Made by a program: the position numbers and the translations under genes | NCBI GenBank assembly: GCA_963807405.1 | Contig: CAWEBU010000009.1 | Span: forward strand, 881,068 to 945,067 | Length of the DNA stretch: 64,000 bases | Direction of reading: 5' to 3' | Source: an uncultured Acidobacteriota bacterium | GTDB taxonomy: Bacteria; Acidobacteriota; Vicinamibacteria; Vicinamibacterales; UBA2999 | Notes under the pieces: generated by a model | Told to the model about the DNA's origin: nothing | Database searches by the model: none | What the model saw: the letters and a program-made list of their open reading frames with translations, nothing else | Part shown: in pieces, positions 26,505 to 52,035 of the stretch | How positions within the stretch are numbered: position 1 is the stretch's first letter | Layout of the letters: each line of letters starts with the position of its first letter

Positions 26505-26548
26505 TTGACTTGCAACATTCGATTCATTACAGTGCAACAAGTGTTGCA
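26505..26548 (+). promoter_or_regulatory. Sigma-70 promoter with overlapping palindromic operator upstream of the chrB-like gene
   Basis: TTGACT (26505-10)-N17-TACAGT (26528-33); palindrome TGCAACA-AG-TGTTGCA (26533-48); extra half-site TGCAACA at 26511-17. Confidence 0.7.
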
Positions 26549-27577
26549 ATGACTGAATCAGTCCCTGCCCGCTGGCTGGTGCTGCTGTTCCAGGCCGCGG
26601 GGCGTTCGTCCAGCGCGCGGGTCCGGATCTGGCGCCGGCTGCAGGAGATGGGCGCGGTGCAGATCCGCCAGGCAGCCTACGTCCTGCCCAATCGCGAGCA
26701 GGCGCGCGAAGACCTCGAGTGGCTGAAGGCCGAGATCCTGGCCACAGGGGGCCAGGCCACGGTGCTGCTGGCAAGCGCCACCGACGGCTTCGCCGACGAC
26801 GAGATCGTCGCGGTGTTCCGGGCCGCGCGCGCCGCCGACGTCGCTCGATTGACCAGCCAGGGACGGGCACTGGTGCGCCGCCTGGCGCGCAGGGGCGAGC
26901 GCCCGGCGCGCGACGGGGTCGACCGGGCGACCGCGGCGTTCGTCGCGCGGTGCCGGCAGCTGGCAACCATCACCTTCTTCGACACGCCGGGCACGGCGGA
27001 ACTGGAGGAGCTCGTGGCGCAACTGACCAACTCGACCACCCGTGGCGCCGGCGGGGCCGGCACGTCTCGGACACTCGACCCGGCGGCCTACCGGCGGCGC
27101 CGGTGGATCACGCGGCCGCGGCCGGGCGTGGACCGCATGGCGTCGGCGTGGCTCATCCGCACCTTCATCGATCCAGAGGCCCGCTTCGCCTTCGCCGGCC
27201 AGCCGGAGAAGGACGCCGTGCCCTTCGACATGTTCGGCGTCGAGTTCGGCCACCAGGGCGACGCCTGCACGTTCGAGGTGTTGCGGACCCGGTTCGGCGT
27301 CGAGGACACGGCCGTGGACTGGATCGCGCGCATCGTGCACGACGTCGACCTTCGCGATCGGAAGTACGACGAGGCCGAGGCAGCGGGCGTGGAGCTGATG
27401 GTCGACGGCCTGCGCCGAGCCCATCCCGACGACGGCGACCTGCTCGAGCGCGGCATCGCGCTCTTCCACTCGCTCGCCAAGGGCTATCAGGCTCGCGTCC
27501 CGGAGCCGCGGACCAGGACGGCGACCACGCGGCGGGCCACCAAGCGCCCCCGATCGCGAGCGCGCGGCAGGAGCTAG
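26549..27577 (+). CDS. chrB: Chromate resistance protein ChrB-like regulator (ChrB N- and C-terminal domains)
   Basis: 'RVRIWRRLQ.MGAV....AYVLP', 'WITRPRPGVDRMASAWLIRTFID..A.F', 'PFDM.GVEFGH.GDACTFE' and 'IVHDVDL'. Confidence 0.82.
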   Translation: MTESVPARWLVLLFQAAGRSSSARVRIWRRLQEMGAVQIRQAAYVLPNREQAREDLEWLKAEILATGGQATVLLASATDGFADDEIVAVFRAARAADVARLTSQGRALVRRLARRGERPARDGVDRATAAFVARCRQLATITFFDTPGTAELEELVAQLTNSTTRGAGGAGTSRTLDPAAYRRRRWITRPRPGVDRMASAWLIRTFIDPEARFAFAGQPEKDAVPFDMFGVEFGHQGDACTFEVLRTRFGVEDTAVDWIARIVHDVDLRDRKYDEAEAAGVELMVDGLRRAHPDDGDLLERGIALFHSLAKGYQARVPEPRTRTATTRRATKRPRSRARGRS

Positions 27578-27604
27578 CACACCGTTCGGAACAGGAGGCA
27601 CAGC

Positions 27605-28947
27605 ATGCAGTGCGATCGACGCTCGTTCCTCGGTGGTCTGGGGGCGGTCGTTGCCACCGGGCCGGCCAATCACTCCGCGGCGGACGCCCAGACGGCGGCG
27701 GCGCCCGACCGGTCCAGCGCCTGGCGTCGGGAGTTTCCGGCTCTCGACCAGCGGGTCCACGGACACCGGCTCGCCTACCTGGACAGCGCCGCGACGACGC
27801 TGCGGCCGCGGGCCGTCATCGACGCCGTGTCGCGCTTCTACGAGACGGACAACGCCAATCCCGGGGCCGCCCTCCATACCCTGGCGCGGCGCTCGGCGAG
27901 CCGCTACGCGGCCGCGCGGGCGCGGGTCGCCACCTTCCTGAACGCCGACCCGAGCGAGGTGGTGTTCACCAAGGGCACGACCGAGGGCCTCAACCTGGTG
28001 GCGACCGTCTTCGCCGCCGAGCTGAAGCCGGGCGACGAGATCGTGCTGACGGTGGCCGAGCACTACTCGAACCTGCTGCCGTGGCGGGCACTGGCCACGC
28101 GCACCGGGGCCATCGTCCGCGTGGTCGACATCGACGACCACGGCCGCCTGATGGCGGCGCGGTTCGCTGCCGCGATCACGTCGCGGACGAGGCTCATCGC
28201 GTTCGGCCACGTCTCGAACGTGCTTGGCCTGGTGGCGCCGGCGGCCGAGATTCTGTGCCGCGGCCCGGGCCCGCGGGGTGCCGGTCGTCATCGACGCGGC
28301 GCAGTCGGCGCCCCATCTCAGGCTCGACGTCCGGGCCCTCGACTGCGACTTCCTCGCCTTCTCATCGCACAAGATGCTCGGCCCGATGGGGGTCGGCGTG
28401 CTGTGGGCGCGGGGAAGCTGGCTCGATCGCCTGCCGCCGTATCAGGTGGGCAGCAACATGGCCCACGAGGTGGAGGGCGACAGCGCCCAGTTCGAGCACG
28501 GCGCGCTGAAGTACCAGGCCGGCACGCCCAATGTGTCCGGGCCGGTTGGGCTGGCCGCGGCGCTCGACATGCTGGACGGCATCGGCATCGACCAGGTGCG
28601 AGGGCACGACGACGCGCTGGTGGCCCATGCGCGCGAAGGCTTCGCGCGCGTCCCGGGCCTGCGGGTACTCGGCACGCTCGACGACGCCCACCGGCTGCCG
28701 GTGTTCACGTTCTCGCTGCCGGGCGTGACCGCCGGCGCCCTCGTGCAGGCGCTCGACGCCGAAGGCGTGGCGGTCCGCGGCGGCGACATGGCGGCGCTGC
28801 CGCTCCTCAGTCGGCTTGGGCCTTCGCGAGGCGGTGCGCGCGTCGTGCTACCTCTACACCAGCCTCGACGACATCGACCGGCTCGTCGACGGGCTGCAGC
28901 GCCAGGCCGGTCGCGCCGTCACGCCGAAATTCATCGTTCGCGGCTGA
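27605..28947 (+). CDS. SufS/class V aminotransferase-like PLP enzyme with Tat-type leader, lacking the catalytic Cys (frameshifts near 28253 and 28820)
   Basis: YLDSAATT, FTKGTTEGLN, EHYSN, DAAQSAPH, SSHKMLGP (PLP Lys), AGTPN, 'RGGDMAALP' and 'RASCYLY...DIDRL', spread over three frames. Confidence 0.8.
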
Positions 28948-29001: not shown

Positions 29002-29319
29002 ACCCCGGTTGTCCGCTCGCCTTCTACCGGGCCGCAGGTCGGACTGCTCGGGCCCTCCCGCCAACGGTGCTGAGGGGAACGGCGGCCGATCGGCGCTATC
29101 CTCCGCAGGCCGCCTGCCAGTCGCGCTCAGGGCGGCGACCCCCTTCCTCTCGGCGTCGTCCGGCGTTGACGCGTGGTGCGCACAACGGTGCGCGTCCACC
29201 CGGCTCGTGACGGCCTGGTCCCAGGCCGCCCTCGCACTACCAGCAGTCGCTGCAGGGAAGGCCACGCCTCGTCGTGGCTCGTGCCGTCACGCTCGATGGC
29301 ACATCTCCAGGAGGTCGCC

Positions 29320-30657
29320 ATGGTTGATTCGACTCGTCGCTTCGTCGAACGTTCGCCGGGAATCGCCCCTGCCTCAGCGGCCAGTCGCCGTCTGCGGCTC
29401 GCCGGGTCGGTCCTGACGGTGATGGCGCTGACGGCCGCCCCGCGCGTGGCGGCCGCTCAGAGCGTGGACACCGTCGTGCAGTGGAACCAGCAGATGCTGA
29501 CGGCCGTGTTCACCCCGGGGGCGAACCCGTCGACGATCTTCGTCTCGCGGCCGTTGGCCATCGCCAGCGTGGCGATGTTCGACGCCGCCAACAGCTTCGA
29601 CCGCGTCTACCAGCCGTATGCGACATGGGCCCAACCGGCTGCCGGGGCGTCGCCTGACGCCGCCGTCGCCCAGGCCGCGCACGACACGCTCGTGGCGCTG
29701 CTGCCATCACAGACCGCGACCCTCGACGCGGCACTCGCGGCCACCCTGGCCGGCATCCCGCCTCAGGCGGCGGCCGACGGCGCGGTGGTGGGCGCCGCTG
29801 CCGCCAGGGCCATCCTGGAACTGCGTACCGGCGATGGCTGGGAACGGCCCTTCGCCCCCTTGCTACTGCCCAGCCTGCCGGGCTTCTGGAAGCCGACGCC
29901 GCCGGCCAACTCGGCCGCCGCCTTCACCAACTACCCGGACGTGGTCGGGTTCATCATCGCGAACGGCCGCCGCTTCATGGTCGAAGGGCCGCCGGCGCTG
30001 ACGAGTGAGCGCTACGCGACCGATTTCAACCAGGTGAAGGCGTGGGGGGCGGTCAACAGCACCGTCCGTTCCGCCGAGCAGACGCTCATCTCGAACCAGT
30101 GGGCCGGCGTCGGCACCACCACCAATTTCAGTCGGGTGTGGAGCGGCGTGGTGAACAGTCTGGCGCGCAGCCGCGGCTGGAGCGGTGCGGAACTCACGCG
30201 CGCGCAAGCGCTCGTCAGCATGACCTTTCACGACGCGCTGCTGACGACATTCACCGGCAAGTTCGTCTACGGATTGTGGCGGCCGGTGACGGCCATCCGC
30301 GAGGCCGACACCGACGGCAACCCGGCCACCGACGCCGATCCGGCCTGGCTGCCGCTGCTGGCCACCCCGCCCTACCCGAGCGCGCCGGGCAACATGGCCT
30401 GCATCGGCTCGTCGCTGGCGCGCACGCTGGCGCGGCTGTTCGGTCAGGACGACATTCCGTTCTCCGTGACGTGGGCCGGGACTGGCACCAACCCGGCAAC
30501 GACGCGGCAGTACAACGGGTTTCGCCAGCTCGGCGACGAGCAGGCCTACAGCCGCATCTGGGGCGGCATCCACTTCGAGTTCGAGACGCTGTCGAGCATC
30601 GGCCAGTGCGCGCGGCTCGGCGACTACGCGGTCGATAACGTCCTGCGCAGACGCTGA
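29320..30657 (+). CDS. Secreted vanadium-dependent haloperoxidase/PAP2-like protein with divergent motif II
   Basis: AGGAGG RBS; signal peptide; 'PPAL.S..YA.DFN.VK..G', 'KFVYGLWRPVTAIR', 'W.PLL.TPPYPS' and 'SRIWGGIHF'. Confidence 0.78.
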   Translation: MVDSTRRFVERSPGIAPASAASRRLRLAGSVLTVMALTAAPRVAAAQSVDTVVQWNQQMLTAVFTPGANPSTIFVSRPLAIASVAMFDAANSFDRVYQPYATWAQPAAGASPDAAVAQAAHDTLVALLPSQTATLDAALAATLAGIPPQAAADGAVVGAAAARAILELRTGDGWERPFAPLLLPSLPGFWKPTPPANSAAAFTNYPDVVGFIIANGRRFMVEGPPALTSERYATDFNQVKAWGAVNSTVRSAEQTLISNQWAGVGTTTNFSRVWSGVVNSLARSRGWSGAELTRAQALVSMTFHDALLTTFTGKFVYGLWRPVTAIREADTDGNPATDADPAWLPLLATPPYPSAPGNMACIGSSLARTLARLFGQDDIPFSVTWAGTGTNPATTRQYNGFRQLGDEQAYSRIWGGIHFEFETLSSIGQCARLGDYAVDNVLRRR

Positions 30658-30695: not shown

Positions 30696-31295
30696 ATGAG
30701 CCTCGCCGAGTTGTACGCCCGCCACGCTCGGCGCTTCGACCGCGCCCGGGTGCGCTCACTGATGGAACGGCCGTACCTCGAGATGGCGGCGACGTTGGCG
30801 CCCGCCCCGGGTCGTGTCCTGGACCTTGGCTGCGGCAGCGGGGAACCGCTGGCGCGCTACTTCGTCGAGCACGGGTATCACGTCACCGGCATCGACACCG
30901 TCCGCGAGATGCTCGAGATGTGCCGGGCGAGATTCCCCGGGATGACGTGGCAGCAGGCCGACATGCGTCACCTGGACCTGCCACAGCCGTTCGAGATCGT
31001 GATCGCGTGGGACAGCTTCTTCCATCTGGGACGTGACGATCAGCGGCAGATGTTCGCCACGTTCCGGCGGCACACCGCGCCGGGTGGCGTCCTCGTGTTC
31101 ACCAGTGGGCCGGCTGAGGGGGAAGTGATGGGCGATCTCTTCGGAGATGCGCTCTACCACGCGAGCCTGGACACGCCGGAGTATGCGCGGCTGCTCGACC
31201 GGCACGGATACGACGTGGTCATCCACCGGGTCGAAGACCCGGACTGCGGAGGCCACACGGTGTGGATCGCGCAGCGGCGGAACGTCGACGCGTGA
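30696..31295 (+). CDS. Class I SAM-dependent methyltransferase
   Basis: 'VLDLGCGSG', 'QADMR' and 'AWDSFFHL'. Confidence 0.88.
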   Translation: MSLAELYARHARRFDRARVRSLMERPYLEMAATLAPAPGRVLDLGCGSGEPLARYFVEHGYHVTGIDTVREMLEMCRARFPGMTWQQADMRHLDLPQPFEIVIAWDSFFHLGRDDQRQMFATFRRHTAPGGVLVFTSGPAEGEVMGDLFGDALYHASLDTPEYARLLDRHGYDVVIHRVEDPDCGGHTVWIAQRRNVDA

Positions 31296-31339
31296 GCTCG
31301 TGTGAGCGTGGCCGACGGTGGAAGGCGGCTGCGCTACTT

Positions 31340-31685
31340 CCCAAAGGTGTCGACGCCGAGAACGCGCCCTTCACCATCTTCTCCGGCCGGTGGGTCGTCC
31401 CGAACCTGCATCACGGCTCGACCCAGGCCGGCCCGATCTTCTTCCGCACCTTCTTCGGCCTCGGCTTCCTCGACGTGCACGTGGAGATGCCGGGGCGTGG
31501 CCCAGAACCCCCTCAACCCGCTCGCCGACTTCGGCACGGTCTACTTCGACGAGCTCTCGGCCTTCACCACCAGCGGCACGCGCCTGCTGGTCAACGGCAC
31601 AGCCACCTCGATGGTCGACAACGGGGTGACGCTGGCGCGCCCGATCCGGCTCAACGACTTCGCGTTCAGGATCGATCACGCCTGA
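31340..31685 (+). pseudogene. Gene fragment, possibly the C-terminus of a G1 (peptidase A4-like) glutamic peptidase
   Basis: Coding-like sequence with no clear start and a frame break near 31495; the tail 'PLADFGTVYF...SMVDNG' is reminiscent of G1 peptidases. Confidence 0.3.
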
Positions 31686-31810
31686 GCTCGCGCCTCGGGT
31701 CCGCGGCGGCTCGACCAGCCGAGGCGAGGTCGAGGCCGTCCGGGAACCGCCCCGGAATTGTGTTGCGCGTCGTGCGGCGGGGCACTAGCATCGGCGCGGA
31801 GTCGCGCACC

Positions 31811-34800
31811 ATGGATACGGGCCGACGGCAGTTCCTCAAAGGCTCGACGCTTGCCGGCGCGGCCGTCTCGGTGCTGGGTTTCGACCTCGGCCCGGCCGCC
31901 GCCGACGTGCGCGCGCTGAAGATCGCCCGCACGACCGAGACGCGGTCGACCTGCCCCTACTGCTCGGTGAGCTGCGGCGTCATCATCCACACGCTGGGGG
32001 ACAAGTCGCGCAACGTCACGCCGACCGTCGTGCACGTCGAGGGCGACCCCGACCACCCGATCAACCAGGGGACGCTCTGCCCCAAGGGCATCACCCTCAA
32101 GCAGAACATCGTCAACGACCGGCGGCTCACCACGGTGAAGTACCGCGCGCCGGGGGCCACGGCCTGGGAAGAGAAGTCCTGGGACTGGGCGATCGACCGC
32201 ATGGCGCGCCTCGTGAAGGACACGCGCGATCGTCATTTCGTCGAGGCCGACGCCCGCGGCCGTGCACGGTGCGAGGCGCTGACCGCGCTCGGGGTCATCG
32301 GCGGCTGCACCGACACCAACGAGATCAACTACCTGCTCGTGAAGGCGTTTCGCGCCGGCCTCGGCGTCGTGCCGATCGAGCAGCAAGCCCGGATATGACA
32401 CGGACCCACGGTGGCCAGTCTGGCCGCCACGTTCGGACGCGGGGCGATGACCAACGGCTGGACCGACATCCGGAACGCCGATGTCGTCCTCGCCATGGGC
32501 GGCAACCCGGCCGAGAATCACCCAGTCGGCTTCCGCTTCGTCATGGACGCCAAGCGCAACCGCCGCGCGAAGCTGGTCTCGGTCGACCCCCGCTACAACC
32601 GCACCTCGGCGGTCGCTGACGCGCTTCGTCCAGATCCGCGCCGGCACCGACATCGCGTTCCTCGGCGGGCTGATTCACTACGCGCTGTCGAAGAACCGCA
32701 TTCACCGCGAGTACGTGCGGCTCTTCACCAACGCCTCGTTCCTCGTCAACGACGACTACGCGTTCGACGAGAAGCAGGGCGTGTTCTCGGGCTGGAACGA
32801 CCAGGCCAAGGCCTACGCCGACACCTCGAGCTGGGCCTATCAGCTCGACGCCAGGGGCCACGCCCGCGTGGATCCCACGCTCGAGCATCCGCGGTCGGTG
32901 TTCCAGGTGATGCGCACCTTCTATGCGCGCTACACGCCGGAGACGGTGGCCGGCATCTGCGGCTGCTCGGCAGCGGACTTCGAGAAGGCGGCCGAGCTCA
33001 TCACGAGCACCTTCGAGGCGGACAAGGTCGGCACCATCTGCTACGCCCTCGGCTGGACGCACCACAGCCACTCGGTACAGCTCATCCACGCCGCCGCCAT
33101 GCTGCAGTTGCTGCTCGGCAACATCGGCCGTCCGGGCGGCGGCCTGAACGCGCTGCGCGGCCACTCGAACATCCAGGGCGGCACCGATTGCGGCATGGCG
33201 TACCACAACCTGCCCGGCTACATTCCCATCCCGAAGGCGGACCACGCCACGCTGCCGGCGTTCGTGTCCGCGGTGACGCCGCCGGCCCTGCGGCCGACGG
33301 CCACGAACTTCTGGTCGAACACCGACCGCTTCGTCGTCAGCCAGCTCAAGGCCTACTACGGCGCCGCCGCCACGCCCGCCAATGGCTTCGGCTACGACTT
33401 CCACCCGCGGCTGCCGCAATCACCCGCCGGCGCCGACGAGAACTGGAGCTGGGCCTACATGTTCGACCGCATGTTCCGCGGCGACATGGAGGGCATGTTC
33501 GCCTTCGGCATGAACCCGGTCAGCAACGGACCGCACTCGAAGAAGGTCGTGGCGGCGCTGTCGAAGCTCAAGTGGCTGGTGGTGGCCGAGAACTTCGAGC
33601 AGGAAACCGCCGCCTTCTGGCGCGACGACATCCAGGCGCTCGTGAACCAGACGCCGGCCGACGTCGGCACCGAGGTCTTCATGCTGCCGGCGGCGAACTT
33701 CGCCGAGAAGGACGGCGCGTTCGTCGAACTCGGCGCGCTGGATTCAGTGGAAGTGGAAGGCCATCGATCCGCCGGGCGAGGCCCAGCCCGACCAGGACAT
33801 CATCGCCCGCATCTTCCTGGCCGTGCGCGATCTCTACGCGCGCGAGGGCGGCGCCTACCCGGCGCCGATTGCCGCGCTCGACTGGTGGTACTCGAACCCC
33901 GCCAGTCCCTCGCTCGACGAAGTGGCCAAAGAGATCAACGGCTGGGCTCTCGAGGACGTGAGGGACGCGGCCGGCACCGTCGTGCTGCGCAAGGGGCAGC
34001 AGCTCGCACGGTTCACCGACGCGCAGGCCGACGGCACGACCGCGTCCGGCAACTGGCTCTACATCGGCATGTACACCGATGCCGGCAACCTGACCCAGCG
34101 CCGATCGTTCGCCGATCCGAGCGGGCTCGGCCGCTATCCGGAGTGGGGCTTCAGCTGGCCAGCCAACCGGCGCATCCTCTACAACCGCTGCTCGGCCGAT
34201 GGCGCCGGCCAGCCGTGGGACGCCTCGCGCGTCGGCATCGAGTGGAACGGCACCCGCTGGACCGGCGACGTGCCCGACTTCGGCGCCGACAGCCCGCCCG
34301 AGGCCGAAGCCGGGGCCTTCCTGATGCTGCCGGAAGGGGCAGGCCCGCCTGTTCGTGCCGGGCCAGTTCGTCGAAGGACCGTGGTCGGAGCACTACGAGC
34401 CGGCCGAGTCGCCGGTGGCCAATCCCGCTCCACCCGGCGCAGAGCAGCAATCCCGCCATCCACCGCTTCGACGACCGAGCACGACGTGCTCGGCACGGCC
34501 GACCGCTATCCGATCGTCTGCACCACCTACCGGCTGACCGAGCACTTCCACTACTGGACCAAGAACAACCCCTACAGCATGCAGCTGCAGCCGGAGTTCT
34601 TCGTCGAGATCTCCGAGGAGCTGGCGAGCAGAGAAGGCGATCGCCAGCGGCGATCGTGTGCGCGTGACCTCGGCCCGCGGTGAGATCGAAGGCAAGGCGA
34701 TGGTGACCAGGCGCATCAAGCCGCTGCTGGTGGCCGGCAAGGTGACGCACCAGATCGGCTTCCCGATCCACTGGGGCTTCCTCGGCCGCGGCCAGCAGCG

Positions 34801-34903
34801 CGGCTCGCTGGCCAATCTCGTGACGCCGACCGTCGTCGATCCCAACTCACACGCGCCGGAGTACAAAGGCTTCCTCGTGGCGCTCGACAAGGTGGAGGCC
34901 TAG
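31811..34903 (+). CDS. fdnG: Formate dehydrogenase-N/O type alpha subunit, selenocysteine-containing (several frameshifts)
   Basis: Tat leader GRRQFLKG; CPYCSVSCG...CPKG; 'QARI-TGA-HGPTVASLA.TFGRGAMTN'; GGNPAENHP; ALRGHSNIQG; WPANRRILYNR; TTYRLTEHFHYWT; PEYK.FLV. Confidence 0.92.
32410..32428 (+). promoter_or_regulatory. Bacterial SECIS element
   Basis: Hairpin GGTGGCC-AGTCT-GGCCGCC starting 11 nt after the in-frame TGA (32396-32398), with GU in the loop. Confidence 0.85.
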
Positions 34904-36434: not shown

Positions 36435-37254
36435 CGTGGTGGCAGCGGCCCTCGAGCGCCGCGCGGCCCGCGCGACGGCGCTCGCCGCGACGACGCCGTC
36501 GGCCGCCGGCCTGCTGACCTACTACGCCCATCTGAGCGAGGTGCAGCGCGGCCTGACGCCGCACGTGACGCCACCGCCCGAAGCGCCGGCCGAGGCGGCG
36601 GGGCCGTCGGGATCGTTGGCCCGCCGGATCGACACCGGTGCCGTGGCCGCCCTCGTGCCGGCGCTGCTGCCGAAGCTCCAGGCCGGCGCGCCGCCCACGC
36701 TCCGCCGGGCGATGCTGGCGCTCGCCGCGGAGGCGCCGCTGACGTGGCAGGCGCGCCTCGATGCGTCCCTCGCCACCGACGACGGCGTCGCCGGCGACGC
36801 TCCTGCCGCCTTCGTGTGCGAAGTCGTCCTGCAGCCCTTCGCCGAGGCGGCGGCCCGCGCCATGCCGCTCGCGCTCGCCGCCCGCCCGGGCCCGGGCGCC
36901 AGGTGCCCGTGCTGCGGCGGCCGTCCGGTGATGGGCGTGCTGCGCGAACGCGGCCACGGCGCCGGACGCGGCCTGGTCTGCGGCCGCTGCCTCCACGAAT
37001 GGGCCGCCCCGCGCCTGGTCTGCCCGTCGTGCGGCGGCATGGAGGTGGCGGCGCTGCCGGTGTTCCGTGCCGATCGCTGGCCGGCGGCGCGGCTCGATGC
37101 CTGTGAGCAGTGCCGTGCGTATCTCAAGTCCGTCGACTTGACGGTGGACGGGGCCGCCATCGCCGTCGTCGACGACCTGGCGACGCTGCCGCTGGATCTA
37201 TGGGCGGCCGAGGAGGGCTTCCACAAGCTGCGGCCGAACCTCCTGCGGCTCTAG
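36418..37254 (+). CDS. fdhE: Formate dehydrogenase accessory protein
   Basis: CPCCGGRP, C..C..EW..PR..CP.CG, CEQCRAYLK and DDLATLPLD. Confidence 0.88.
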   Translation: MTPIADVVAAALERRAARATALAATTPSAAGLLTYYAHLSEVQRGLTPHVTPPPEAPAEAAGPSGSLARRIDTGAVAALVPALLPKLQAGAPPTLRRAMLALAAEAPLTWQARLDASLATDDGVAGDAPAAFVCEVVLQPFAEAAARAMPLALAARPGPGARCPCCGGRPVMGVLRERGHGAGRGLVCGRCLHEWAAPRLVCPSCGGMEVAALPVFRADRWPAARLDACEQCRAYLKSVDLTVDGAAIAVVDDLATLPLDLWAAEEGFHKLRPNLLRL

Positions 37255-38322: not shown

Positions 38323-39656
38323 ATGCGCATCGTCATCATCGGCGGCGGACAGGTGGGCTCGTCGCTGTCGCGGGCCCTGTCCTCCGATCACGAGGTCGTC
38401 GTCGTCGACCATGACCCGGCCGTGGCCGACGTGTTCCACGCCATGGACGTGCAGTTCCTGCTCGGCAGCGGCACGAGCGCCGACGTGCTGCAGCAGGCCG
38501 ACATCGCGCGCGCCGACTTCTTCGTGGCCGCCACCGCGCTCGACGAAGTCAACATCGTGGCCTGCGCGCTCGCCAACCGGCTCGGCCACCCGAAGACCAT
38601 CTGCCTCGTCTCGCGCGCCGAGTTCCTCGAGGGCGGCGGGCTGAGCGCGTTCGGCATCACCCGCCTCGTCTGGCCCGAGGCGCAGCTGGCGGCCGACATC
38701 GAGCAGATCGTCACCTCACCGGGCGCCATCGATGCCGAGGTCTTCGCCGGCGGCGTGGTGCGGCTGCTCGAGTACCGCCTCGGCGGCCGAGTCGCCGCTG
38801 GCCGGCGCTTCGCTCGGCGCGCTGCACCTGCCGCGCGGGTCGCTGGTCGTGGCCGTCAAACGGGCCGGCCGGATGTTCGTGCCGCGCGGCGCCACCACCC
38901 TCCAGGCCGGTGACAAAGTCATCATCATGGGCACGCCCGATGCCATGCGTGCCGTGGAGTCGCTGGTCCAGGCGGGGCGTACCGGCAGCCACCTGCGGGT
39001 GACCATCATCGGCGGCGGCGACGTCGGCCTGCAGCTGGCCGAGCGCCTCGAGAAGACCCCGTCGATCGACCTGCGGATTCTCGAGAGCGGCACCGCGCGC
39101 GGCGAGATGCTGGCGGCGCGGCTCAAGCGCACCCTGGTGCTCAACGGCGACGGCACCGATCTCGAATTCCTCGAATCCGAGAACGTCGGGCAGAGCGACG
39201 TGCTCGTCTCGGTCATCGACAACGACGAGCGCAACCTGCTGGCCTCGCTGCTCGGACGTCAGCTCGGCGTGCCGAAGGTCATCACGCGGGTGAGCCGGCG
39301 GGCCAACCTGCGGTTGTTCGAGCGGGTCGGCATCGACGTGGCGATCTCGGCACGCGGCGCCGCCGTCGACTCGATCCTGCACCAGATCACCGGCGGCACG
39401 ACCAGCCTGCTGGCGGTCATCGAGCACGGCGAGGCGCGGGTGCTCGAGCTCACCGTGGCGCCGACCTTCGTGACCCGCGAGCTCAAGGCCATGGGCGGCT
39501 CCCAGGACGCCATCGTCGGCCGCCATCCTGCGCGACGGCTCGGCGGTCGTGCCGCGCGGCGACGACCGCATCGGCGCCGGCGATCGCATCGTCGTCTTCT
39601 GCACGCAGGAAGCCGTCGACCGCGTGCGCGATTACTTCACCAAAGAGACGCGCTGA
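38323..39656 (+). CDS. trkA: Trk potassium uptake regulatory subunit (frameshifts near 38785 and 39520)
   Basis: Two RCK-N domains (IIGGGQVG; IIGGGDVG) each followed by an RCK-C domain. Confidence 0.88.
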
Positions 39657-39676
39657 GCGGCAGCCGCCCTCCGACC

Positions 39677-41170
39677 ATGCGCTACTCCCTCGTCGTCCAC
39701 GTCTGCGGCGTGCATCGTCCGGATGTTCGGCGCGATGTTCCTGGCGCCGTTGGTGGTGGCCCTGTGGTACGGCGAGCACCACGACGCCATCGGCTTCGGC
39801 CTGGCCGCCGTCGTGACCGGGGCGGCTCGGCCAGCTGATGCGCAAGGCCGGCGGCACGTCGGCCGAAGAGGCCGTCGAGCGCATGCGCCGCGTCGAGGGC
39901 CTGGCGGTGGTCTCGCTGTCGTGGCTGTTCATCGCCCAGTTCGCCGCCATCCCGTATCGTCTGGGTCGGGGCTGGGCCCGATCGACGCGCTGTTCGAGTC
40001 GATGTCGGGCCTGACGACCACCGGCGCCACCGTGTTCCGCGACTTCTCGCTGTTCGGCCGCGGCATCTTCTTCTGGCGGTCGCTCACGCAGTGGCTGGGC
40101 GGCATGGGCGTGATCGCGCTCTTCGTGGCCGTGCTGCCGCGGCTGGCGATCGGCGGGCGCGAGCTGTTCTTCGCCGAGGCCCCCGGGCCGAGCGACGACA
40201 AGGTCGAGCCCGCAGATCCGCCGCACGGCGAGCGTCGCTGTGGCAGCTCTACGCCGGCCTGACGGCGCTCGAGGTGCTGGCGCTCATGGCCGCCGGCATG
40301 TCGCCCTTCGACGCGGTGTGCCACGCCATGACGACGCTGGCGGCCGGCGGCTTCTCGCCGCATCCCGCTCTCGATCGCCGGCTACCACAACCCGGCCGTC
40401 GAGTGGATCCTCATCGGCTTCATGTTCGTGGCCGGTGCCAACTTCGCGCTGCAGTACCGCGCGCTGTCGCGGCGCAACGCCCGACTCGCTGGTGGTGGAC
40501 GAGGAACTGCGCACCTACGTCGGGGTGTCGTCGTCGCGACCGCTGCTGCTGTGCCGCGCTCGGGTTCGGCGCGGCGGCGTCGGCACCACCGTGCGCCAGG
40601 CGCTGTTCCAGGTGCTGTCGATCCTCACGACGACCGGCTACGCGAGCATCGACTTCCAGCTGTGGAACGACCAGGCGAAGATGGTGCTGCTCGTGCTGAT
40701 GTTCATCGGCGGGTGCGCCGGCTCGGCCTCGGGCGGGCCGAAGGTGGTCCGCCACCTGCTGCTGGCGCGCTTCACGCTGCAGAGCCTGCGGCGCGTGCTG
40801 CATCCGCGCGCCATCCTGCCGATGAAGCTGGGCGGCCGCGTCGTGCCCGATCCGATCATGCAGACCGTGGTCGTGTTCTTCCTGTTCTACCTGCTCGTCT
40901 TCTCGATCTGCACCGGCATCGTCGTGGCGCCTCGGCGCCGACATCGTCACCGGCATGACGGCCACCATCGCCTGCCTCGGCAACATCGGCCCGGGCTTCA
41001 ACGAGGTCGGGCCGATGGCCCACTTCGGCGACCTGCATCCGGTCAGCCGGGTCGTGCTGACGCTGGCGATGTGGATCGGGCGGCTCGAGGTGCTGACCGT
41101 GCTGGTGGTGCTGCGTCCCGAGGCGTGGCGGTCCGGGCAATGGTCCGCCGGCAGTCGCCGGATTGCCTGA
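39677..41170 (+). CDS. trkH: Trk potassium uptake membrane subunit (multiple frameshifts)
   Basis: FESMSGLTTTGAT, QWLGGMG, TLAAGGFS, TTTGY, FIGGCAGSASGGPK, LGNIGPG and MWIGRLE. Confidence 0.88.
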
Positions 41171-41244
41171 TCCGGCCGGCGGCTGGCCGCGGTAGAGTAG
41201 CGCGGCGGCGGCGCCCCGCGGGGCGGCCCGTGGAGACCCCAACG

Positions 41245-42405
41245 ATGGCACCGATGCGATTCGTACGGACCGCCGCCCTGCTGGCGCTCGTCACGCTGGC
41301 GCCGCGGCTCGGCGCCGAGACGCCGACGGCGCAGACGCCGGCGCCGGCAGCGCCCGCCGTCATCATGGGGCCGACCGGCCCCAGCCCGTACGAGGTCGTG
41401 CGCGGCTGGCACAAGCCGTTCGCCGCGCCCGGCTTCGCCTTCGGCGGCAACTCCGGCGTGTTCGCCGAATCGCCCGACCGCATCTTCGTCGCGCAGCGCG
41501 GGGAGTTCCGCCTGCCGTCGCCGCTGCCGCCGGAGTACGCCGGCTTTGCCGGCTCGCTCAAGATGAACGTGCTGACGCTGGTCGATCGGCGCGTGTGGCA
41601 GAACTGCCTCTACACGCTGGACGCGAGCGGCCGCGTCAAGGAACGCTGGACGCAGTGGGACCATCTCTGCGAGGGCTCCGCCGGTCCCGGGCCGCATCGG
41701 CTGCGCATCAGCCCCTACGATCCGGCGCGTCGCGTCTGGGTCATCAACGAGACCTTCCACACCATCTACGTGTTCTCGAACGACGGCAAGCAGCTCCTCA
41801 AGACGCTGGGCGAGAAGAACGTGCCCGGCGCCGATGCCACGCACTTCGCCAGGCCGCAGGATGTCGCCTTCCTGCCCGATGGCCGCATCCTCATCGCCGA
41901 CGGGCTCGACAACCACCGCGTGATGATCTTCGACCAGGACCTCAACTACCTGTCGGAGTTCGGCGGCAAGGGGTCGGCGCCCGGCCAGTTCAACGGCGTG
42001 CATGCGGTGGCGGTCGGGCCCGGCGGGCGCATCTTCGCGCTCGATCGCACGGGTGGCCGCGTCAACGTCTACCGCACCACCTCCGATCCGACGAAGGTGG
42101 AGGTCGAGGCGTCGTGGCCGGGCTTCTCGCTGCCGCTCGACCTCATCGTGAACGACGACGCGGTGTGGATGACGGACCTCAAGCCGCTCCGGTTCATCAA
42201 GCTGGATTTCACCGGCAAGCGCCTCTACACCTGGCTCGTGCCCGCCGACCTGCCGGACGGCTACCTGGAGGTCCACACCTTCTCGGTCGACTCGGCCGGC
42301 AACCTCTACGGCGGCGACAACCAGTACGGCCGCACGCAGAAGTTCGTGCCGAAGCCAGGCGCCGATCCGGCGCTGCTCATCAAGACGCCGTGGGTGCGCC
42401 GCTGA
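41245..42405 (+). CDS. Secreted NHL-repeat beta-propeller protein (PAL-like)
   Basis: Signal peptide; 'HFARPQDVAFLPDGRILIADG..NHRV' and 'G..PGQFNGVHAVAV'. Confidence 0.75.
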   Translation: MAPMRFVRTAALLALVTLAPRLGAETPTAQTPAPAAPAVIMGPTGPSPYEVVRGWHKPFAAPGFAFGGNSGVFAESPDRIFVAQRGEFRLPSPLPPEYAGFAGSLKMNVLTLVDRRVWQNCLYTLDASGRVKERWTQWDHLCEGSAGPGPHRLRISPYDPARRVWVINETFHTIYVFSNDGKQLLKTLGEKNVPGADATHFARPQDVAFLPDGRILIADGLDNHRVMIFDQDLNYLSEFGGKGSAPGQFNGVHAVAVGPGGRIFALDRTGGRVNVYRTTSDPTKVEVEASWPGFSLPLDLIVNDDAVWMTDLKPLRFIKLDFTGKRLYTWLVPADLPDGYLEVHTFSVDSAGNLYGGDNQYGRTQKFVPKPGADPALLIKTPWVRR

Positions 42406-45192: not shown

Positions 45193-45308
45193 GCGGACGC
45201 TCTCACCGGTGCGACATCATGTCCGACGCCTGCCGCCGGGCGTGATGTCGCGCATCTCGTGCGCCGCGGCCGGTGCCGTGCCAGCGCGGTAGTATCCCAG
45301 TCATCGCC

Positions 45309-47769
45309 ATGGACACCACCCGCTGGCAGCAGATCGAAGCCGTGTTCCACGAAGTGGCTGACCTCCCGGCGGAAACGCGCGAGGCCGCCATCGTGCGTCA
45401 TTGCGGGAACGACGCGGGGCTGGCCAGCGAGGTACGCACCCTGCTCGCCCAGGACGCCGGGCTGGCCGCCGAGGCCGCGACCGGCGATCCGCACCTGGGC
45501 TTGAGGCTCGGCCACTACGAGATCACCGCGCTCATCGCCCGCGGCGGCATGGCAGCCGTCTACGAGGCACGGCGCGCCGACGACCAGTTCCAGCAGCGCG
45601 TCGCCGTGAAGATCATGGATCTGCGGCTGTCGGATCCGGAGCTGGTGGCCCGGTTCCGCGCCGAACGGCAGATTCTGGCGGCGCTCGAGCACCCGGCGAT
45701 CACGCGGCTGCTCGATGGCGGCGTGACCGGCCTCGGCGAGCCGTACCTGGTGATGGAGTTCGTCGAGGGCCTCGCCCTCGATGTCTACTGCGACGAGCGC
45801 CGCCTGGACGTGCCGGCGCGGCTGCGCCTGTTCGCCGAGGTGTGCGAGGGCGTGGCCTTCGCGCACCGCAATCTCGTGCTGCATCGCGACCTCAAGCCGT
45901 CCAACATCCTGGTGACGGCCGAGGGCCGCGTGAAGGTGGTGGACTTCGGCACGGCCACCCTGATGCAGCCCGAGCGCCTGGCGACCACGTCGCGGGCGCC
46001 GCTGACGCCGGCCTACGCGAGTCCGGAGCAACTGACCGGCAATGCCGTGGGCACGGCCAGCGATCAGGTACAGCCTTGGCCTCGTGCTGTTCGAGTTGCT
46101 GACCGGCGCGCCGGCGTTCGGCAATCGGACGTCGCTCATGGCGGCGGTGGAGCGGGCACTGGCGGCCACGACCACGACGGCGCCGCGCGCGGCGGTGACC
46201 GAAGCGGCGGCGGCGGCCCGGCAGACCTCGCTGGCCAAGCTCCGGCGTTCGCTGTCGGGGGACCTGGCGACCGTGCTCGGCAAGGCCCTCGCGCACGATC
46301 CGGCGGCCCGCTACGCCAGCGTGCAGCACTTCGCCGACGACTTCAGGCGCTGGCTGCAGGGCGAGCCGGTGCTCGCCCGGCCGCCGTCGCTCGCCTACCA
46401 GGCGTCGCGGTTCGTCCACCGCCACTGGGTGGCGACGTCGGTCGCGGCGACGCTGGCCGTGGCGCTCGTCATCGCCACCGGCGTGTCACTGCAGCAGGCC
46501 GCCCTGGCGCGCCGCCAGGCCGACGAGGCGCGGCGGCAGGCAGCGGTCGCGCGCACGGAGTCGGAGCGGACGCGGCAGTTGAACCGCTTCATGACCGGTA
46601 TGTTGTCGTCGGCCAACCCCAGTTGGGGCAACACCAACGCCGCGCGCGCCGGCACCATCACCGTGCGGGAGGTGCTCGACGGCGCCAGCCAGATCGTCGA
46701 GAAGGAGCTGGCCGGGTCGCCGCTCGTCGAAGCGCAGATGCGCCAGACCATCGGCACCACCTACGTGGGCCTGGGCGCCTACGACCAGGGCCGCCCGCAT
46801 CTCGAGCGGGCGCTGGCCCTGTATCGCGAACAGGGCGATGGGCTCGGCGAGGCGCAGACCCAGGCGGCGATGGCGACGGAACGCAACCGGCGCGGCCTCT
46901 TCCCGGAGGCCGAAGCGCTGCTGCGCCAGGCGCTCGCCTACGTGCGATCGCCGGGAACGCGCGCCGATCCCCTGTTCCAGCTGCAGGTGCAGACCGAGCT
47001 CTCAACGGTCCTGAGCAATCAGCAAACGGCACATCCCGAAGGGATGACGCTGCTGCGCGAGTCGATGGCGCTGGCCGACCGCCACGCCCTCAATCCCGCC
47101 GCCCTTTCCGTCGTGCTGCACAACTTCGGCCTGCAGCTCCTGCTGACCGGGCAGCTCGACGAGGCCGAGCGCCTGATCCGCCAGGCCTACGAGCGGCAGA
47201 ACAGCATGACGCCGCCGGCCGGCGAGCGGTTCATGGCGCTGCGCAGCCTGTCCGAGGTGTACCGGTCGCGCGGCAACGCGGCGGAGGCGCTACGCGTGGC
47301 GCAGGAAGCCGCCGACGGGATCGCGCGGGTCTTCCCGCCCGCGCACCCGTATCAGGCGCCGGTCCAGATCGCCCTCGGGCGCGCGCTGGTCTCGGCCGGG
47401 CAGGTCGAGAAGGGACGGGAGACGCTCCTCGCCGTCTATACGGCGCTCCGAGCCGCGCGACCGGCCGGCAGCGTCGATCTGCTCGGTCCGCAGGTGGGCC
47501 TCGGGGCGGCACACCGGCTGGCCGGCGATCTGAAGGCGTCGGAGGCCGTGCTGCGCGAAGCGCGGGCCATCATCCTGGCGAACCCCGGCATGCAGAACTC
47601 CATGCCCGGCATCGCCGGCGAACTGGGCCTCACGCTGCAGGCGATGGGACGTCGGGCCGAGGCTGATGCGCTCCTGCGCGACGCTCACAGCCACCTGCAG
47701 CGGATCTACGGCGACGAGCATCCCTCGACCAAACGCGCCCTGGCCCGGGTGCAGGGCGCGAGTCAGTAG
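45309..47769 (+). CDS. Membrane Ser/Thr protein kinase with TPR-like C-terminal region (frameshift near 46065)
   Basis: RGGMAAVY, VAVK, HRDLKPSNIL, DFG and YASPEQ; DxYSLG split by the frameshift; TM helix, then TPR-like repeats. Confidence 0.88.
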
Positions 47770-49407: not shown

Positions 49408-50212
49408 ATGCAGGTTATTCCGGTCGCTGCCGTACATCGTGGCTTCGGGACGACGTCCCGGCGCGACAAGTGGTGGGCAGCACCAGTCGGCGTCTTCTTC
49501 GGTCTTTCAGCGTTCGTCGTCTACGCGACGTGGGCGGCGTTCCAGAACGCCCACTACACCTTCGGCCCGTACCTGTCGCCGTTCTATTCGCCCGAAGATG
49601 TTCGGTGACTTCGCCGCACGCGTGGTTCGGGCCGAAGCCGGGGTGGTGGCCGGCAATCTGCCGTTCTCGCCGGCGCTGCTCATCCTGCCGTTTCCCGGCG
49701 GGTTCCGCTTCACCTGCTATTACTACCGCGGTGCCTACTACAAGGCGTTCTGGGCCGACCCGCCGTCGTGCGCGGTCGGCGAGCCGCGCAAGAGCTATCT
49801 CGGCGAGAACTCGTTTCCGCTGATCCTGCAGAACGTCCACCGCTACTTCATGTGGGTGGCGATCGTGTTCATCGGCCTGCTCACCTGGGACGCCTGGAAG
49901 GCCTTCTGGTTCCCAATCCCACGACCGGCGCAGGTCGAGTTCGGCGTTGGCGTCGGCACGCTCGTGCTGCTGGTCAACGTCGTCCTGCTGGCCGGCTACA
50001 CCTTCGGCTGCCACGTGCTCCGCCACGTCATCGGCGGACGGCTCGATGAGGTGTCGAAGTCGCCGGCCTGCGACATGGCCTACGCCTGCGTCAGCGGCCT
50101 CAACGTGCGCCACCAGCTCTTCGCCTGGTGCAGCCTGTTCTCGGTGATGTTCGCCGACATCTACGTCCGCCTGTGCTCGATGGGCGTCATGACCGACGTG
50201 AGGCTCTTCTGA
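49408..50212 (+). CDS. Sdh1-type (Rv0249c-like) succinate dehydrogenase membrane anchor (frameshift near 49598)
   Basis: 'R.D.WW', 'YLSPFYSP', 'GFRFTCYYYRGAYYKAFW.DPP.CAV.EP', 'QN.HRYF', 'GCH..RH' and 'RHQLFAW'. Confidence 0.78.
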
Positions 50213-52035
50213 TGGCAGCACACGCGTCCTACAGCTACGACGTCCTCGTCATTGGCGCCGGCGGCGCCGGCCTGCGCGCCGCCATCGAGGCCGCCACCGG
50301 CGGCGCGACGGTCGGTCTCATCTGCAAGTCGCTGCTCGGCAAGGCCCACACCGTGATGGCCGAGGGCGGCATGGCCGCGGCCATGGCCAACGTCGACGAC
50401 CGCGACAACTGGAAGGTGCACTTCGCCGACACCATGCGCGGCGGCCAGTACGTGAACAACTGGCGCATGGCCGAACTGCACGCCAGGGAGGCGCCCGACC
50501 GGGTGCGCGAACTCGAGGCGCTGGGGCGCGGTGTTCGACCGCACCGCCCGACGGCCGGATCAACCAGCGCAACTTCGGCGGTCATCGCTACCCGCGACTG
50601 GCGCACGTCGGCGACCGCACCGGCCTCGAGCTGATCCGCACGCTGCAGGACCACACCGTCTACCTCGGGGTGACCGTGCACATGGAGCACACGGTGATCG
50701 AGCTGCTGCTCGACGACGGCCGCGTCGGCGGGCGCGCTGGCCTACGACCGCGAGCGCGGCCGCTTCCACGTGTTCGCGGCCAAGGCGATCGTGCTCGCGA
50801 CCGGCGGCGTCGGGCCGCGCCTTCAAGATCACGAGCAACAGCTGGGAAGGCACCGGCGACGGCCACGCGCTCGCCTATCGCGCCGGTGCCGAGCTGCATC
50901 GACATGGAGTTCATCCAGTTCCATCCGACCGGCATGGTGTGGCCGCCGAGCGTGAACGGCATTCTCGTCACCGAGGGCGTGCGCGGAGAAGGGCGGCGTG
51001 CTGAAGAACAGCGAGGGCCGCCGCTTCATGTTCGACGACATCCCCGACAACTACAAACCGCAGACCGCCTCCGATCCCGAGGAAGGCTGGCGCTACACCC
51101 AGGGCGACAAGAGCGCGCGTCGTCCGCCGGAACTGCTCACCCGCGACCACGTCGCGCGCTGCATCAACCGCGAGGTGAAGGCCGGCCGCGGCTCCCCGCA
51201 CGGCGGCGTCTTCCTCGACATCGCGTGGATCAAGGAGAAGCTCGCCGACGCGGCCGAACACATCAAGCGCAAGCTGCCGAGCATGTACCACCAGTTCAAG
51301 GAACTGGCGGATCTCGACATCACGACGACGCCGATGGAAGTCGGGCCGACGACGCACTACATCATGGGCGGCATCCGGGTCGATGCCGACACGCAGGAGT
51401 CGACGATCCCGGGACTGTTCGCCGCCGGCGAGTGCGCGGCCGGCATCAACGGCGCCAACCGCCTGGGCGGCAATTCGCTGTCGGACCTGATCGTCTTCGG
51501 CAAGCGGGCCGGCGAGTACGCGGCCCAGTTCGCGCGCACGGGCGCCATGCCGACGCTCGATGACGGCGCCGTGGACCGGGCGCTGAAGGAGTCGCTGGCG
51601 CCCTTCGAACGCGGCAGCGCCGGCGAGAACCCCTACAAGGTGCAGCAGGATCTGCAGGACACCATGCAGGAGCTGGTCGGCATCGTCCGGACCGAGAGCG
51701 AGATGCAGGACGCCGTCCGGCAACTGGCCGGCTTCAACGAGCGCGCCGCGCGGGCCGGCGTCGACGGCCATCGCGAGTTCAACTCCGGCTGGCACACCTG
51801 CCTCGACCTGCGCAATCTGCTCGACGTCTCCGAGGCCATCGCGCGCTCGGCCATCGAGCGCAAGGAGAGCCGCGGCGGCCACTTCCGCGAGGACTATCCC
51901 GAGAAGGTCGCCGAGTTCGGCCGCTTCAACATCGCCACCCGACGCCAGGCCGACGGCACGATGGCGGTCTCGCGGCTCCCGCTGACCGAGATGCCGGCCG
52001 AGCTGAAGCAGGTCGTCGAGGAACAGAAAACATAG
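50212..52035 (+). CDS. sdhA: Succinate dehydrogenase/fumarate reductase flavoprotein, Sdh1 type (frameshifts about 50520-50995)
   Basis: IGAGGAG, KAHTVMAEGG, MEFIQFHPTG, TEGVRGEG, THYIMGG, GANRLGGNSL and ESRGGH. Confidence 0.88.

Follow-up and report, generated by a model that had tools for sequence, protein, structure and literature searches.

A chrB regulator gene paired with the gene of a cysteine-less SufS-like enzyme bearing a predicted Tat leader, in an uncultured acidobacterium and related metagenomic loci

The stretch of DNA analysed here (the window: 64,000 nucleotides of contig CAWEBU010000009.1, assembly GCA_963807405.1, from an uncultured Acidobacteriota bacterium of the Vicinamibacterales) contains a compact two-gene unit, in which chrB, coding for a regulator of the ChrB family, is followed after 27 nt by the gene of a pyridoxal 5'-phosphate (PLP) enzyme related to the cysteine desulfurase SufS (Table 1). 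A first-pass annotation made from the letters alone had proposed for this unit a sigma-70 promoter, a palindromic operator, a chrB-like gene and a 27-bp intergenic gap with an AGGAGG ribosome-binding site, and had read the second gene as a SufS-fold PLP enzyme with a twin-arginine motif, without the catalytic cysteine and broken by two indels. Every one of these elements was recovered, the second gene starting with the ATG at 27605. In what follows, genomes, contigs and loci carry G, C and L numbers, the genome of the window being G000.

Table 1. Features of the chrB-enzyme unit (positions in the 64,000-nucleotide window)
Feature	Position	Strand	Basis
Sigma-70-type promoter: -35 TTGACT (26505-26510), 17-nt spacer, -10 TACAGT (26528-26533)	26505-26533	+	promoter scan
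Additional TGCAACA half-site within the promoter spacer	26511-26517	+	sequence, inverted-repeat list
Palindrome TGCAACA (26533-26539), AG, TGTTGCA (26542-26548); predicted ChrB binding site	26533-26548	+	
chrB, ChrB-family regulator, 342 aa, intact	26549-27577	+	Pfam ChrB_N, ChrB_C
AGGAGG ribosome-binding site, 6 nt ahead of the ATG of the enzyme gene	27593-27598	+	sequence
SufS-derived class-V PLP enzyme gene	27605-28947	+	frames 27605-~28252, ~28254-~28820, ~28822-28947
Predicted twin-arginine (Tat) signal peptide MQCDRRSFLGGLGAVVATGPANHSAADAQ, N-terminus of the enzyme	27605-27691	+	motif
PLP-binding lysine codon (SSHK)	28371-28373	+	invariant K262 in 50-member family alignment
R-G-G-D-M-A-A-L-P loop in place of SufS R-x-G-H-H-C-A-Q-P	28776-28802	+	

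The promoter is the only promoter-like site between 26200 and 29500 (~3.3 kb), shuffled versions of the region giving a mean of 0.0. The first base of the palindrome is the last base of the -10 element and its last base directly precedes the ATG of chrB, the start codon having little or no leader. When the box was written in degenerate form (TGYAACANNTGTTRCA), a single perfect occurrence was found in the whole genome of 5,441,826 bases, the one at chrB, and four further sites with two mismatches lie elsewhere, none of them near chrA. A half-site resembling the one in the promoter spacer (TGTTACA) is also seen upstream in locus L106. The product of chrB has both domains of the family above the Pfam cut-offs (ChrB_N, PF20229, 1.1e-10; ChrB_C, PF09828, 3.1e-40), and they are the sole ChrB_N and the sole ChrB_C of the genome. 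With a single ChrB in the genome, the ChrB regulon of this organism is probably restricted to the operon described here.

The second gene gave its best NCBIfam matches with the models of SufS and of the encapsulin cargo desulfurase, while the Pfam Aminotran_5 domain was recognized on two pieces (3e-50 and 1e-50). The coding sequence is spread over three frames and, by alignment to intact orthologues, its two +1 shifts could be placed near 28253 and at 28818-28822, the latter within a GGGCC run. Uninterrupted orthologues of 441-447 aa are found in three related genomes (G008, G019 and G242), the loci being L008 (2523-3845, 441 aa), L017 (137-1477, 447 aa) and L106, and apart from the shifts the window enzyme is 63-64% identical to them and retains all motifs. 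The absence of the cysteine was as announced by the first-pass annotation: the segment VRGGDMAALPL aligns to AVRAGHHCAQPLM of Bacillus subtilis SufS (5xt5) and, on the basis of this alignment, the catalytic cysteine is replaced by alanine, whose codon is found at 28791-28793.

This replacement is a family trait. In the best 120 of 7974 matches among 5.8 billion proteins (54-100% identical to the G008 orthologue), the motif R[AG]GD[ML][AS][AS][LV]P occupies the place of the SufS cysteine loop in 118, and in the 50-member alignment K262 (PLP), H159 (the stacking histidine), D236, Q239, R398 and R418 are invariant. The canonical SufS proteins of the same phylum, on the other hand, keep G[HQ]HC in 28 out of 28, and the comparison of the two sets gave 11 near-fixed differences, including D401 for the histidine and A403 for the cysteine. 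Full-length members stay below the TIGR01979 cut-off for SufS of 475.1 bits (441.5, 449.0 and 472.8), two pieces of the window enzyme scoring 201.8 and 190.1 bits. The fold is nevertheless that of SufS: the AlphaFold model of an orthologue (mean predicted local distance difference test, pLDDT, 89.8) superimposes on SufS structures with template modelling scores of 0.94-0.96 and a root-mean-square deviation of 1.3 A. With the type II desulfurases SufS and CsdA the enzyme shares 40-44% identity, the PLP lysine, the stacking histidine, the aspartate, the substrate arginines and the short loop length of type II; it departs from them in the alanine for the catalytic cysteine, the aspartate for the preceding histidine, the twin-arginine (RR) leader and the score of its full-length members, and no sufBCDE or sufU was seen adjoining its genes in the neighbourhoods examined. 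In their sources the members go under unspecific names, either 'cysteine desulfurase/selenocysteine lyase' or 'aminotransferase class V-fold', and a search of the ESM Atlas likewise returned generic names only. This is a large family without a name of its own, distinct from SufS by the missing cysteine and the RR leader.

The leader of the window enzyme reads DRRSFLGGL...ADA-Q, with the twin-arginine motif at residues 4-12, and an RR motif appears within the first 45 residues of 107 of the 120 best family members, most of the others starting late. In the AlphaFold model of the orthologue the first ~40 residues have low pLDDT (56-65). The TIGR01409 model of Tat signals (cut-off 16.7 bits) recognizes the leader of L017 (22.4 bits); L008 reached 12.5 bits and the window N-terminus gave no match.

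A way to judge whether the two genes belong together is to look at the same enzyme gene in other genomes, as the first-pass annotation had advised. With a DNA pattern built on the loop of the family (GDMAALPLL, with CTN leucine codons), 51 metagenome loci were retrieved, of which 47 encode the enzyme; together with five genome loci and G001 they make up 53 loci, or 42 clusters at 95% DNA identity. A contig scan with the family alignment had picked up patterns common to canonical SufS: 599 of its 600 candidate stretches were relatives, and the family motif was present in one (L026) of the 80 loci kept from it. chrB is adjacent to the enzyme gene (gap of 250 bp or less) in 20/42 clusters and within 5 kb in three more (L161, L182 and G001). 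In five clusters both flanks could be read and chrB is absent (L185, L186, L172, L155/162 and L166/168); in the remaining 14 the flanks are missing and its presence could not be assessed, many of the metagenome contigs being short. The adjacent chrB lies upstream on the same strand in 8 clusters, downstream on the same strand in 7, divergently in 4 and convergently in 1. One of the adjacent cases comes from a second phylum (L026, a Gemmatimonadaceae metagenome-assembled genome), and there the partner, located 3' of the enzyme gene, consists of ChrB_C only. These figures support the pair formed by chrB and the gene of the Tat-leader, cysteine-less SufS-like protein as a conserved module and not a chance neighbourhood, the pairing and the operator being repeated on many contigs unrelated to one another.

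Except for chrB, no constant neighbour recurs beside the enzyme gene in the loci examined. MacB/FtsX-type permeases are often near, yet they are ubiquitous in these genomes. What does recur are genes of the known chr repertoire, coding for ChrA (L182, G001/L193), DUF1259 (L185, G001/L193), a YncE-like propeller (the L144 cluster and L176) and MFS transporters (the L147 cluster, L155 and L161). The annotation of the plasmid chr cluster of C. metallidurans lists the same families, in the order chrB-chrA-SOD-chrE-ChrB domain-...-MFS-DUF1259-YncE. In the relatives of the window organism, the partners of the remaining ChrB paralogues are MFS plus DUF1259, ChrA or cytochromes. In L193 (G001:C30:13500-24500), from the same genus, the enzyme gene (+) is followed by DUF5916 (-), ChrA (-), DUF1259 (-) and a divergent ChrB (+). 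DUF5916 also adjoins the enzyme gene in L160 and L176.

The co-conservation of the operator, which the first-pass annotation had also advised to test, held in part. A related box, TGTAACA-N2-TGTTACA, precedes chrB or the enzyme gene in 20 of the 30 clusters with upstream DNA, and was not found by pattern in the other 10 (L137, L147, L177, L026, L144, L153, L154, L185, L155 and L168). In the clade where chrB comes first the layout is TTGAC(N)-17-TA(NNN)T, directly followed by TG[TC]AACA-N2-T[GA]TT[AG]CA and then the start codon. The TTGAC-17-TAnnnT arrangement is present at the orthologous loci L008, L106, L017, L174 and L164; in L008 and L106 the start codon of chrB lies inside the palindrome, and in L164, where the enzyme gene comes first, the same promoter and box stand ahead of the enzyme gene. 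When 302 kb of loci were scanned with TGTAACANNTGTTACA, allowing up to 3 mismatches, there were 35 matches and all but one (L163) coincided with the beginning of a chrB, an enzyme gene or, in L161, MFS and MacB-type genes. The box ends 8-27 nt ahead of the enzyme start in L152 (a perfect match), L171, L176, L186, L165, L164, L182 and L193 (G001), the box-like TGAAACGACTGTTACT of L193 lying at 27 nt, and several loci with a box in this position have no adjacent chrB. Next to the chrA clusters (L182, G001) the enzyme gene bears a ChrA-type variant of the box. The group with divergent arrangement and the deep L137/L147 clade of ChrB have other AT-rich repeats, which may reflect co-variation of the regulator and its operator.

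Two of these upstream regions deserve a separate mention. In L137 and in L147/L151/L169 a different AT-rich palindrome, with a ATAGCTAT core, precedes chrB instead of the GTAACA-type box. On the 9-kb contig of L161 there are four perfect or near-perfect boxes; they stand ahead of chrB, around an MFS gene and ahead of the gene of a MacB/FtsX-type permease that itself precedes the enzyme gene, an arrangement that points to a more extensive ChrB regulon there.

To interpret the regulator we have used the ChrB of O. tritici as a reference. As described in PMC3817168, this protein binds its own promoter, in which an inverted repeat, placed from -37 to -4 relative to the ATG, shares bases with the -10 element; its R18A and R23A variants are constitutive, these residues being needed for DNA binding, and R180A, R187A and H229A lose induction by chromate. 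For numbering, the ChrB of a Klebsiella plasmid served as a proxy, since each of the 11 positions mutated in that study carries the expected residue in it. The equivalents of R18, R23, R180, R187, H229 and H258 are kept in all 24 ChrB proteins examined, including that of the window, whose identity to the enterobacterial proxy is ~30%. A maximum-likelihood tree of 36 ChrB sequences grouped those linked to ChrA, MFS and DUF1259 in one clade (99/100, 9 rows), with the enzyme-linked ones excluded from it and distributed over at least six lineages; the group with divergent arrangement is monophyletic (100/99), and the L137/L147 clade is the most divergent of the enzyme-linked ones (branch length 1.53). 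In the AlphaFold (AF2) model of ChrB (pLDDT 88.7) the N-terminal part is a Cas2-like ferredoxin fold, accompanied by a helical bundle. No sequence in the PDB matched ChrB at E <= 1, and Foldseek gave weak matches with the regulators PaaX and Rv0674 (E 3e-3 to 9e-3). In the structure searches of the separate parts the N-terminal one resembled Cas2-like proteins or Rv0674 (Z 8-8.7), and the best match of ChrB_C was an uncharacterised Helicobacter pylori protein (6mtz_B, Z 11.4).

Compared with the chromate determinants of O. tritici (TnOtChr, chrBACF) and of the C. metallidurans plasmid, the locus has a two-domain ChrB with the equivalents of R18, R23, R180, R187 and H229, chrB is the first gene, an inverted repeat overlaps the -10 close to the ATG, and the MFS, DUF1259 and YncE families appear in neighbouring loci. 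There are also differences: the second gene codes for the Tat-leader, cysteine-less SufS-like enzyme and not for ChrA, the operator is TGYAACA-N2-TGTTRCA as opposed to an AT-rich 12-bp repeat with a 9-bp linker, and the enzyme-linked ChrB proteins are separate from the ChrA/MFS/DUF1259-linked clade of the same taxa.

ChrB and ChrA are the textbook components of chromate resistance, and many Cr(VI) biosensors make use of ChrB. The first-pass annotation had remarked that no chrA is present in the window, and indeed the only Chromate_transp matches of the genome are on another contig (G000:C6:3120876-3122135, L001), where the gene is fragmented over at least four reading frames, with no chrB beside it and no ChrB box within 1.5 kb. 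It had also described the enzyme as standing in place of a ChrA pump. This overstates the case: at this locus chrB adjoins the enzyme gene and not chrA, but the genome does have a chrA elsewhere, and in L182 and G001 the enzyme gene is found beside a chrB-chrA cluster. Given these two cases, the enzyme looks like an additional member of the chr gene repertoire and not like a replacement of the pump.

The remark that SufS and CsdA are cytoplasmic is correct, although periplasmic PLP enzymes are already known. PvdN and PtaA, two enzymes that tailor pyoverdine, fold with their cofactor and are then exported to the periplasm by the twin-arginine translocation (Tat) pathway (PMC6206403). The family enzyme has a weak match to the PvdN model, leader included, with 61.7-73.1 bits for NF051467 against a cut-off of 650, and both PvdN and PtaA carry out other chemistry, in the context of siderophore gene clusters. 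The closest mechanistic precedent is C-DES of Synechocystis, also a NifS-like PLP enzyme without an active-site cysteine, which is described in PMC8300815 as a cyst(e)ine C-S lyase yielding persulfide or sulfide, pyruvate and ammonia. C-DES is cytoplasmic, a reported monomer and has no link to ChrB; since it does not appear among the PDB sequence matches of the enzyme at E <= 1e-40, it would seem to belong to a different branch.

The anatomy of the two genes, the loss of the cysteine, the RR leader, the pairing in three gene orders, the conservation of promoter, operator and ChrB residues and the association with other chr genes are all consistent with a single picture, which we consider likely: a ChrB-repressed, oxyanion-induced two-gene operon for a periplasmic, cysteine-independent PLP lyase, conserved as a module in soil bacteria. 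The repression, inducer, export, substrate and physiological role that we infer for it would be as follows. ChrB would bind the palindrome that overlaps the -10 and the transcription start of its own promoter and repress the operon, until a tetrahedral oxyanion, for which chromate is the precedent, lodges in the conserved Arg/His pocket of ChrB_C and lifts the repression. The enzyme would fold with PLP in the cytoplasm and be exported through Tat, as are PvdN and PtaA, to act in the periplasm as a lyase with no need for a persulfide-forming cysteine. Type II desulfurases without the cysteine are said by Mihara and colleagues to be still active on cysteine sulfinate and selenocysteine. With C-DES as a precedent too, a C-S or C-Se lyase lacking this residue is plausible, with cystine or cysteine (through a C-DES-like beta-elimination), cysteine sulfinate and selenocysteine as candidate substrates. 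The small sulfur or selenium species released might then act on the oxyanion while it is still outside the cell, by reducing or trapping it. In its boldest form, which is a tentative proposal that we hold to be rather unlikely, a descendant of the cytoplasmic Fe-S enzyme SufS without the persulfide cysteine, and with a Tat leader acquired, would now serve a ChrB regulon as its effector, making a sulfur or selenium reductant in the periplasm that neutralises chromate-type oxyanions ahead of uptake.

Several observations weigh against this picture. Repression, binding, export and catalysis are all predicted from sequences and models, and the sample of loci is biased, having been fetched with a DNA pattern of the GDMAALPLL loop that used CTN leucine codons. 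The family is rare in the genomes sampled: it was found in 4 of the 41 relatives (G000, G001, G008 and G019) and, at family-level identity, in 2 out of another 400 genomes from the phylum, a tally in which three unpublished genomes are present as canonical SufS rows only. The five clusters that have readable flanks and no chrB, and the ten upstream regions in which the box was not detected, belong on the same side, as does the outcome of TIGR01409 for the window and L008 leaders. The low identity to the O. tritici protein, estimated through the proxy, implies that the effector specificity may differ, and a partner made of ChrB_C only, as in L026, would equally fit a role at the protein level. 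Lastly, the window copy has two frame breaks while rpoB and the canonical sufS of the genome are intact, so the gene could be a pseudogene.

This last point is the basis of the first alternative, namely that the enzyme gene has really decayed in this genome and that, with the broken chrA, only the regulator is left of a degenerating chr system. It would account for two +1 shifts within 1.34 kb and for a chrA spread over several frames on C6, in a genome where errors are not everywhere, as the intact rpoB (a 1476-aa frame) and sufS indicate. The damage extends, however, to other genes of the same 64 kb: the Pfam domains of at least five are split over frames (the formate dehydrogenase alpha subunit, TrkA, TrkH, an SdhA-like flavoprotein and a Ser/Thr kinase), which adds at least seven breaks in conserved genes to the two considered here. 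Of these two, the second falls within the GGGCC run, and outside the shifts the sequence is as similar to its orthologues, and as complete in motifs, as reported above. The assembly has 9 contigs for 5.4 Mb, and other relatives assembled in few contigs (G005 and G008) have a split chrB too, which we take as the pattern typical of long-read indel error. Because the orthologues of relatives are intact and other genes of the window are also frame-broken, the two breaks are read as probable assembly errors, and true decay appears doubtful. In five soil and salt-marsh metagenome runs (up to 8% of words) no contig spanned either break, and a few metagenome contigs of 151 nt match 27500-27715 with 0-1 differences. 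An assembly with errors throughout was considered separately and is partly supported: rpoB and sufS are intact, yet several genes of the window are split.

A second alternative keeps the module and changes its signal. ChrB would sense the status of sulfate, thiosulfate, selenate or molybdate, and the enzyme would recover sulfur or selenium from amino acids outside the cell (cystine, cysteine sulfinate, selenocystine) when oxyanions are out of balance. The position of the enzyme-linked ChrB proteins outside the well supported ChrA/MFS/DUF1259 clade implies that effector specificity may have diverged, and the window genome has neither an intact chrA nor a box at chrA. But all the residues required for induction by chromate are kept, in L182 and G001 the enzyme gene adjoins chrA clusters and has the ChrA-type variant of the box, and no sulfate or sulfonate transport genes recur beside it, all of which makes a signal other than chromate seem quite unlikely to us.

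The third alternative is that ChrB, or ChrB_C, is a protein partner of the enzyme (an acceptor of sulfur or oxyanion, or a Tat 'hitch-hiker') and not a transcriptional regulator. SufS-type enzymes usually have an acceptor protein as their partner, in L026 the gene that follows codes for a ChrB_C-like domain alone, and some ChrB_C homologues are annotated as 'sulfurtransferase/chromate resistance protein'; to this can be added the weak rhodanese-like similarity noted for O. tritici ChrB in PMC3817168. We regard it as highly improbable, as ChrB lacks a signal peptide and the enzyme a cysteine from which a persulfide could be passed on, the arginines needed for DNA binding are kept, a conserved palindrome stands ahead of the operon and also of enzyme genes without a nearby chrB, the divergent and convergent gene orders fit regulation, and no rhodanese was listed among the structure-search matches of ChrB, where ChrB_C found 6mtz_B as its best.

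A ChrB-linked or periplasmic SufS-like enzyme was not found described in the literature covered, subscription journals being outside this coverage. If the operon works as proposed, a secreted SufS-derived PLP enzyme would be a second conserved output of ChrB, broadening what is understood by chromate resistance in abundant and poorly cultured soil phyla with a mechanism apart from efflux by ChrA and from cytoplasmic reduction. The family would offer enzymologists a natural type II desulfurase without cysteine to explain, and TGTAACA-N2-TGTTACA would be the first operator consensus for the ChrB regulators of soil Acidobacteriota. Attention is also drawn to a family of hundreds of proteins, now annotated as 'cysteine desulfurase/selenocysteine lyase', that have no catalytic cysteine and whose location is probably the periplasm.

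As for the rest of the window, an open reading frame of 447 aa with a signal-like N-terminus is located just 3' of the enzyme gene (29314-30654); it had no match in Pfam or NCBIfam and is not kept beside the module in the other loci. It is followed by a formate dehydrogenase alpha gene (31262-34900), whose product starts with a Tat leader (RRQFLKG) and whose remaining sequence is distributed over frames, two or more shifts being apparent. This gene contains an in-frame TGA (32396-32398) directly after ...IEQQARI, which is presumably the expected selenocysteine site, as in FdnG of Escherichia coli. Downstream come fdhB, a cytochrome b gene and fdhE, the series ending at 37251. Further along, the genes of TrkA, TrkH, a Ser/Thr kinase with TPR repeats and the SdhA-like flavoprotein (38323-42402, 45273-47766 and 50128-52032) are frame-split in a manner that suggests indel errors of the assembly. 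At the other end, between 1317 and 13844, four successive genes of the GH13 alpha-amylase family, with a maltokinase cap domain, look like a trehalose/glycogen cluster of the TreS-GlgE type.

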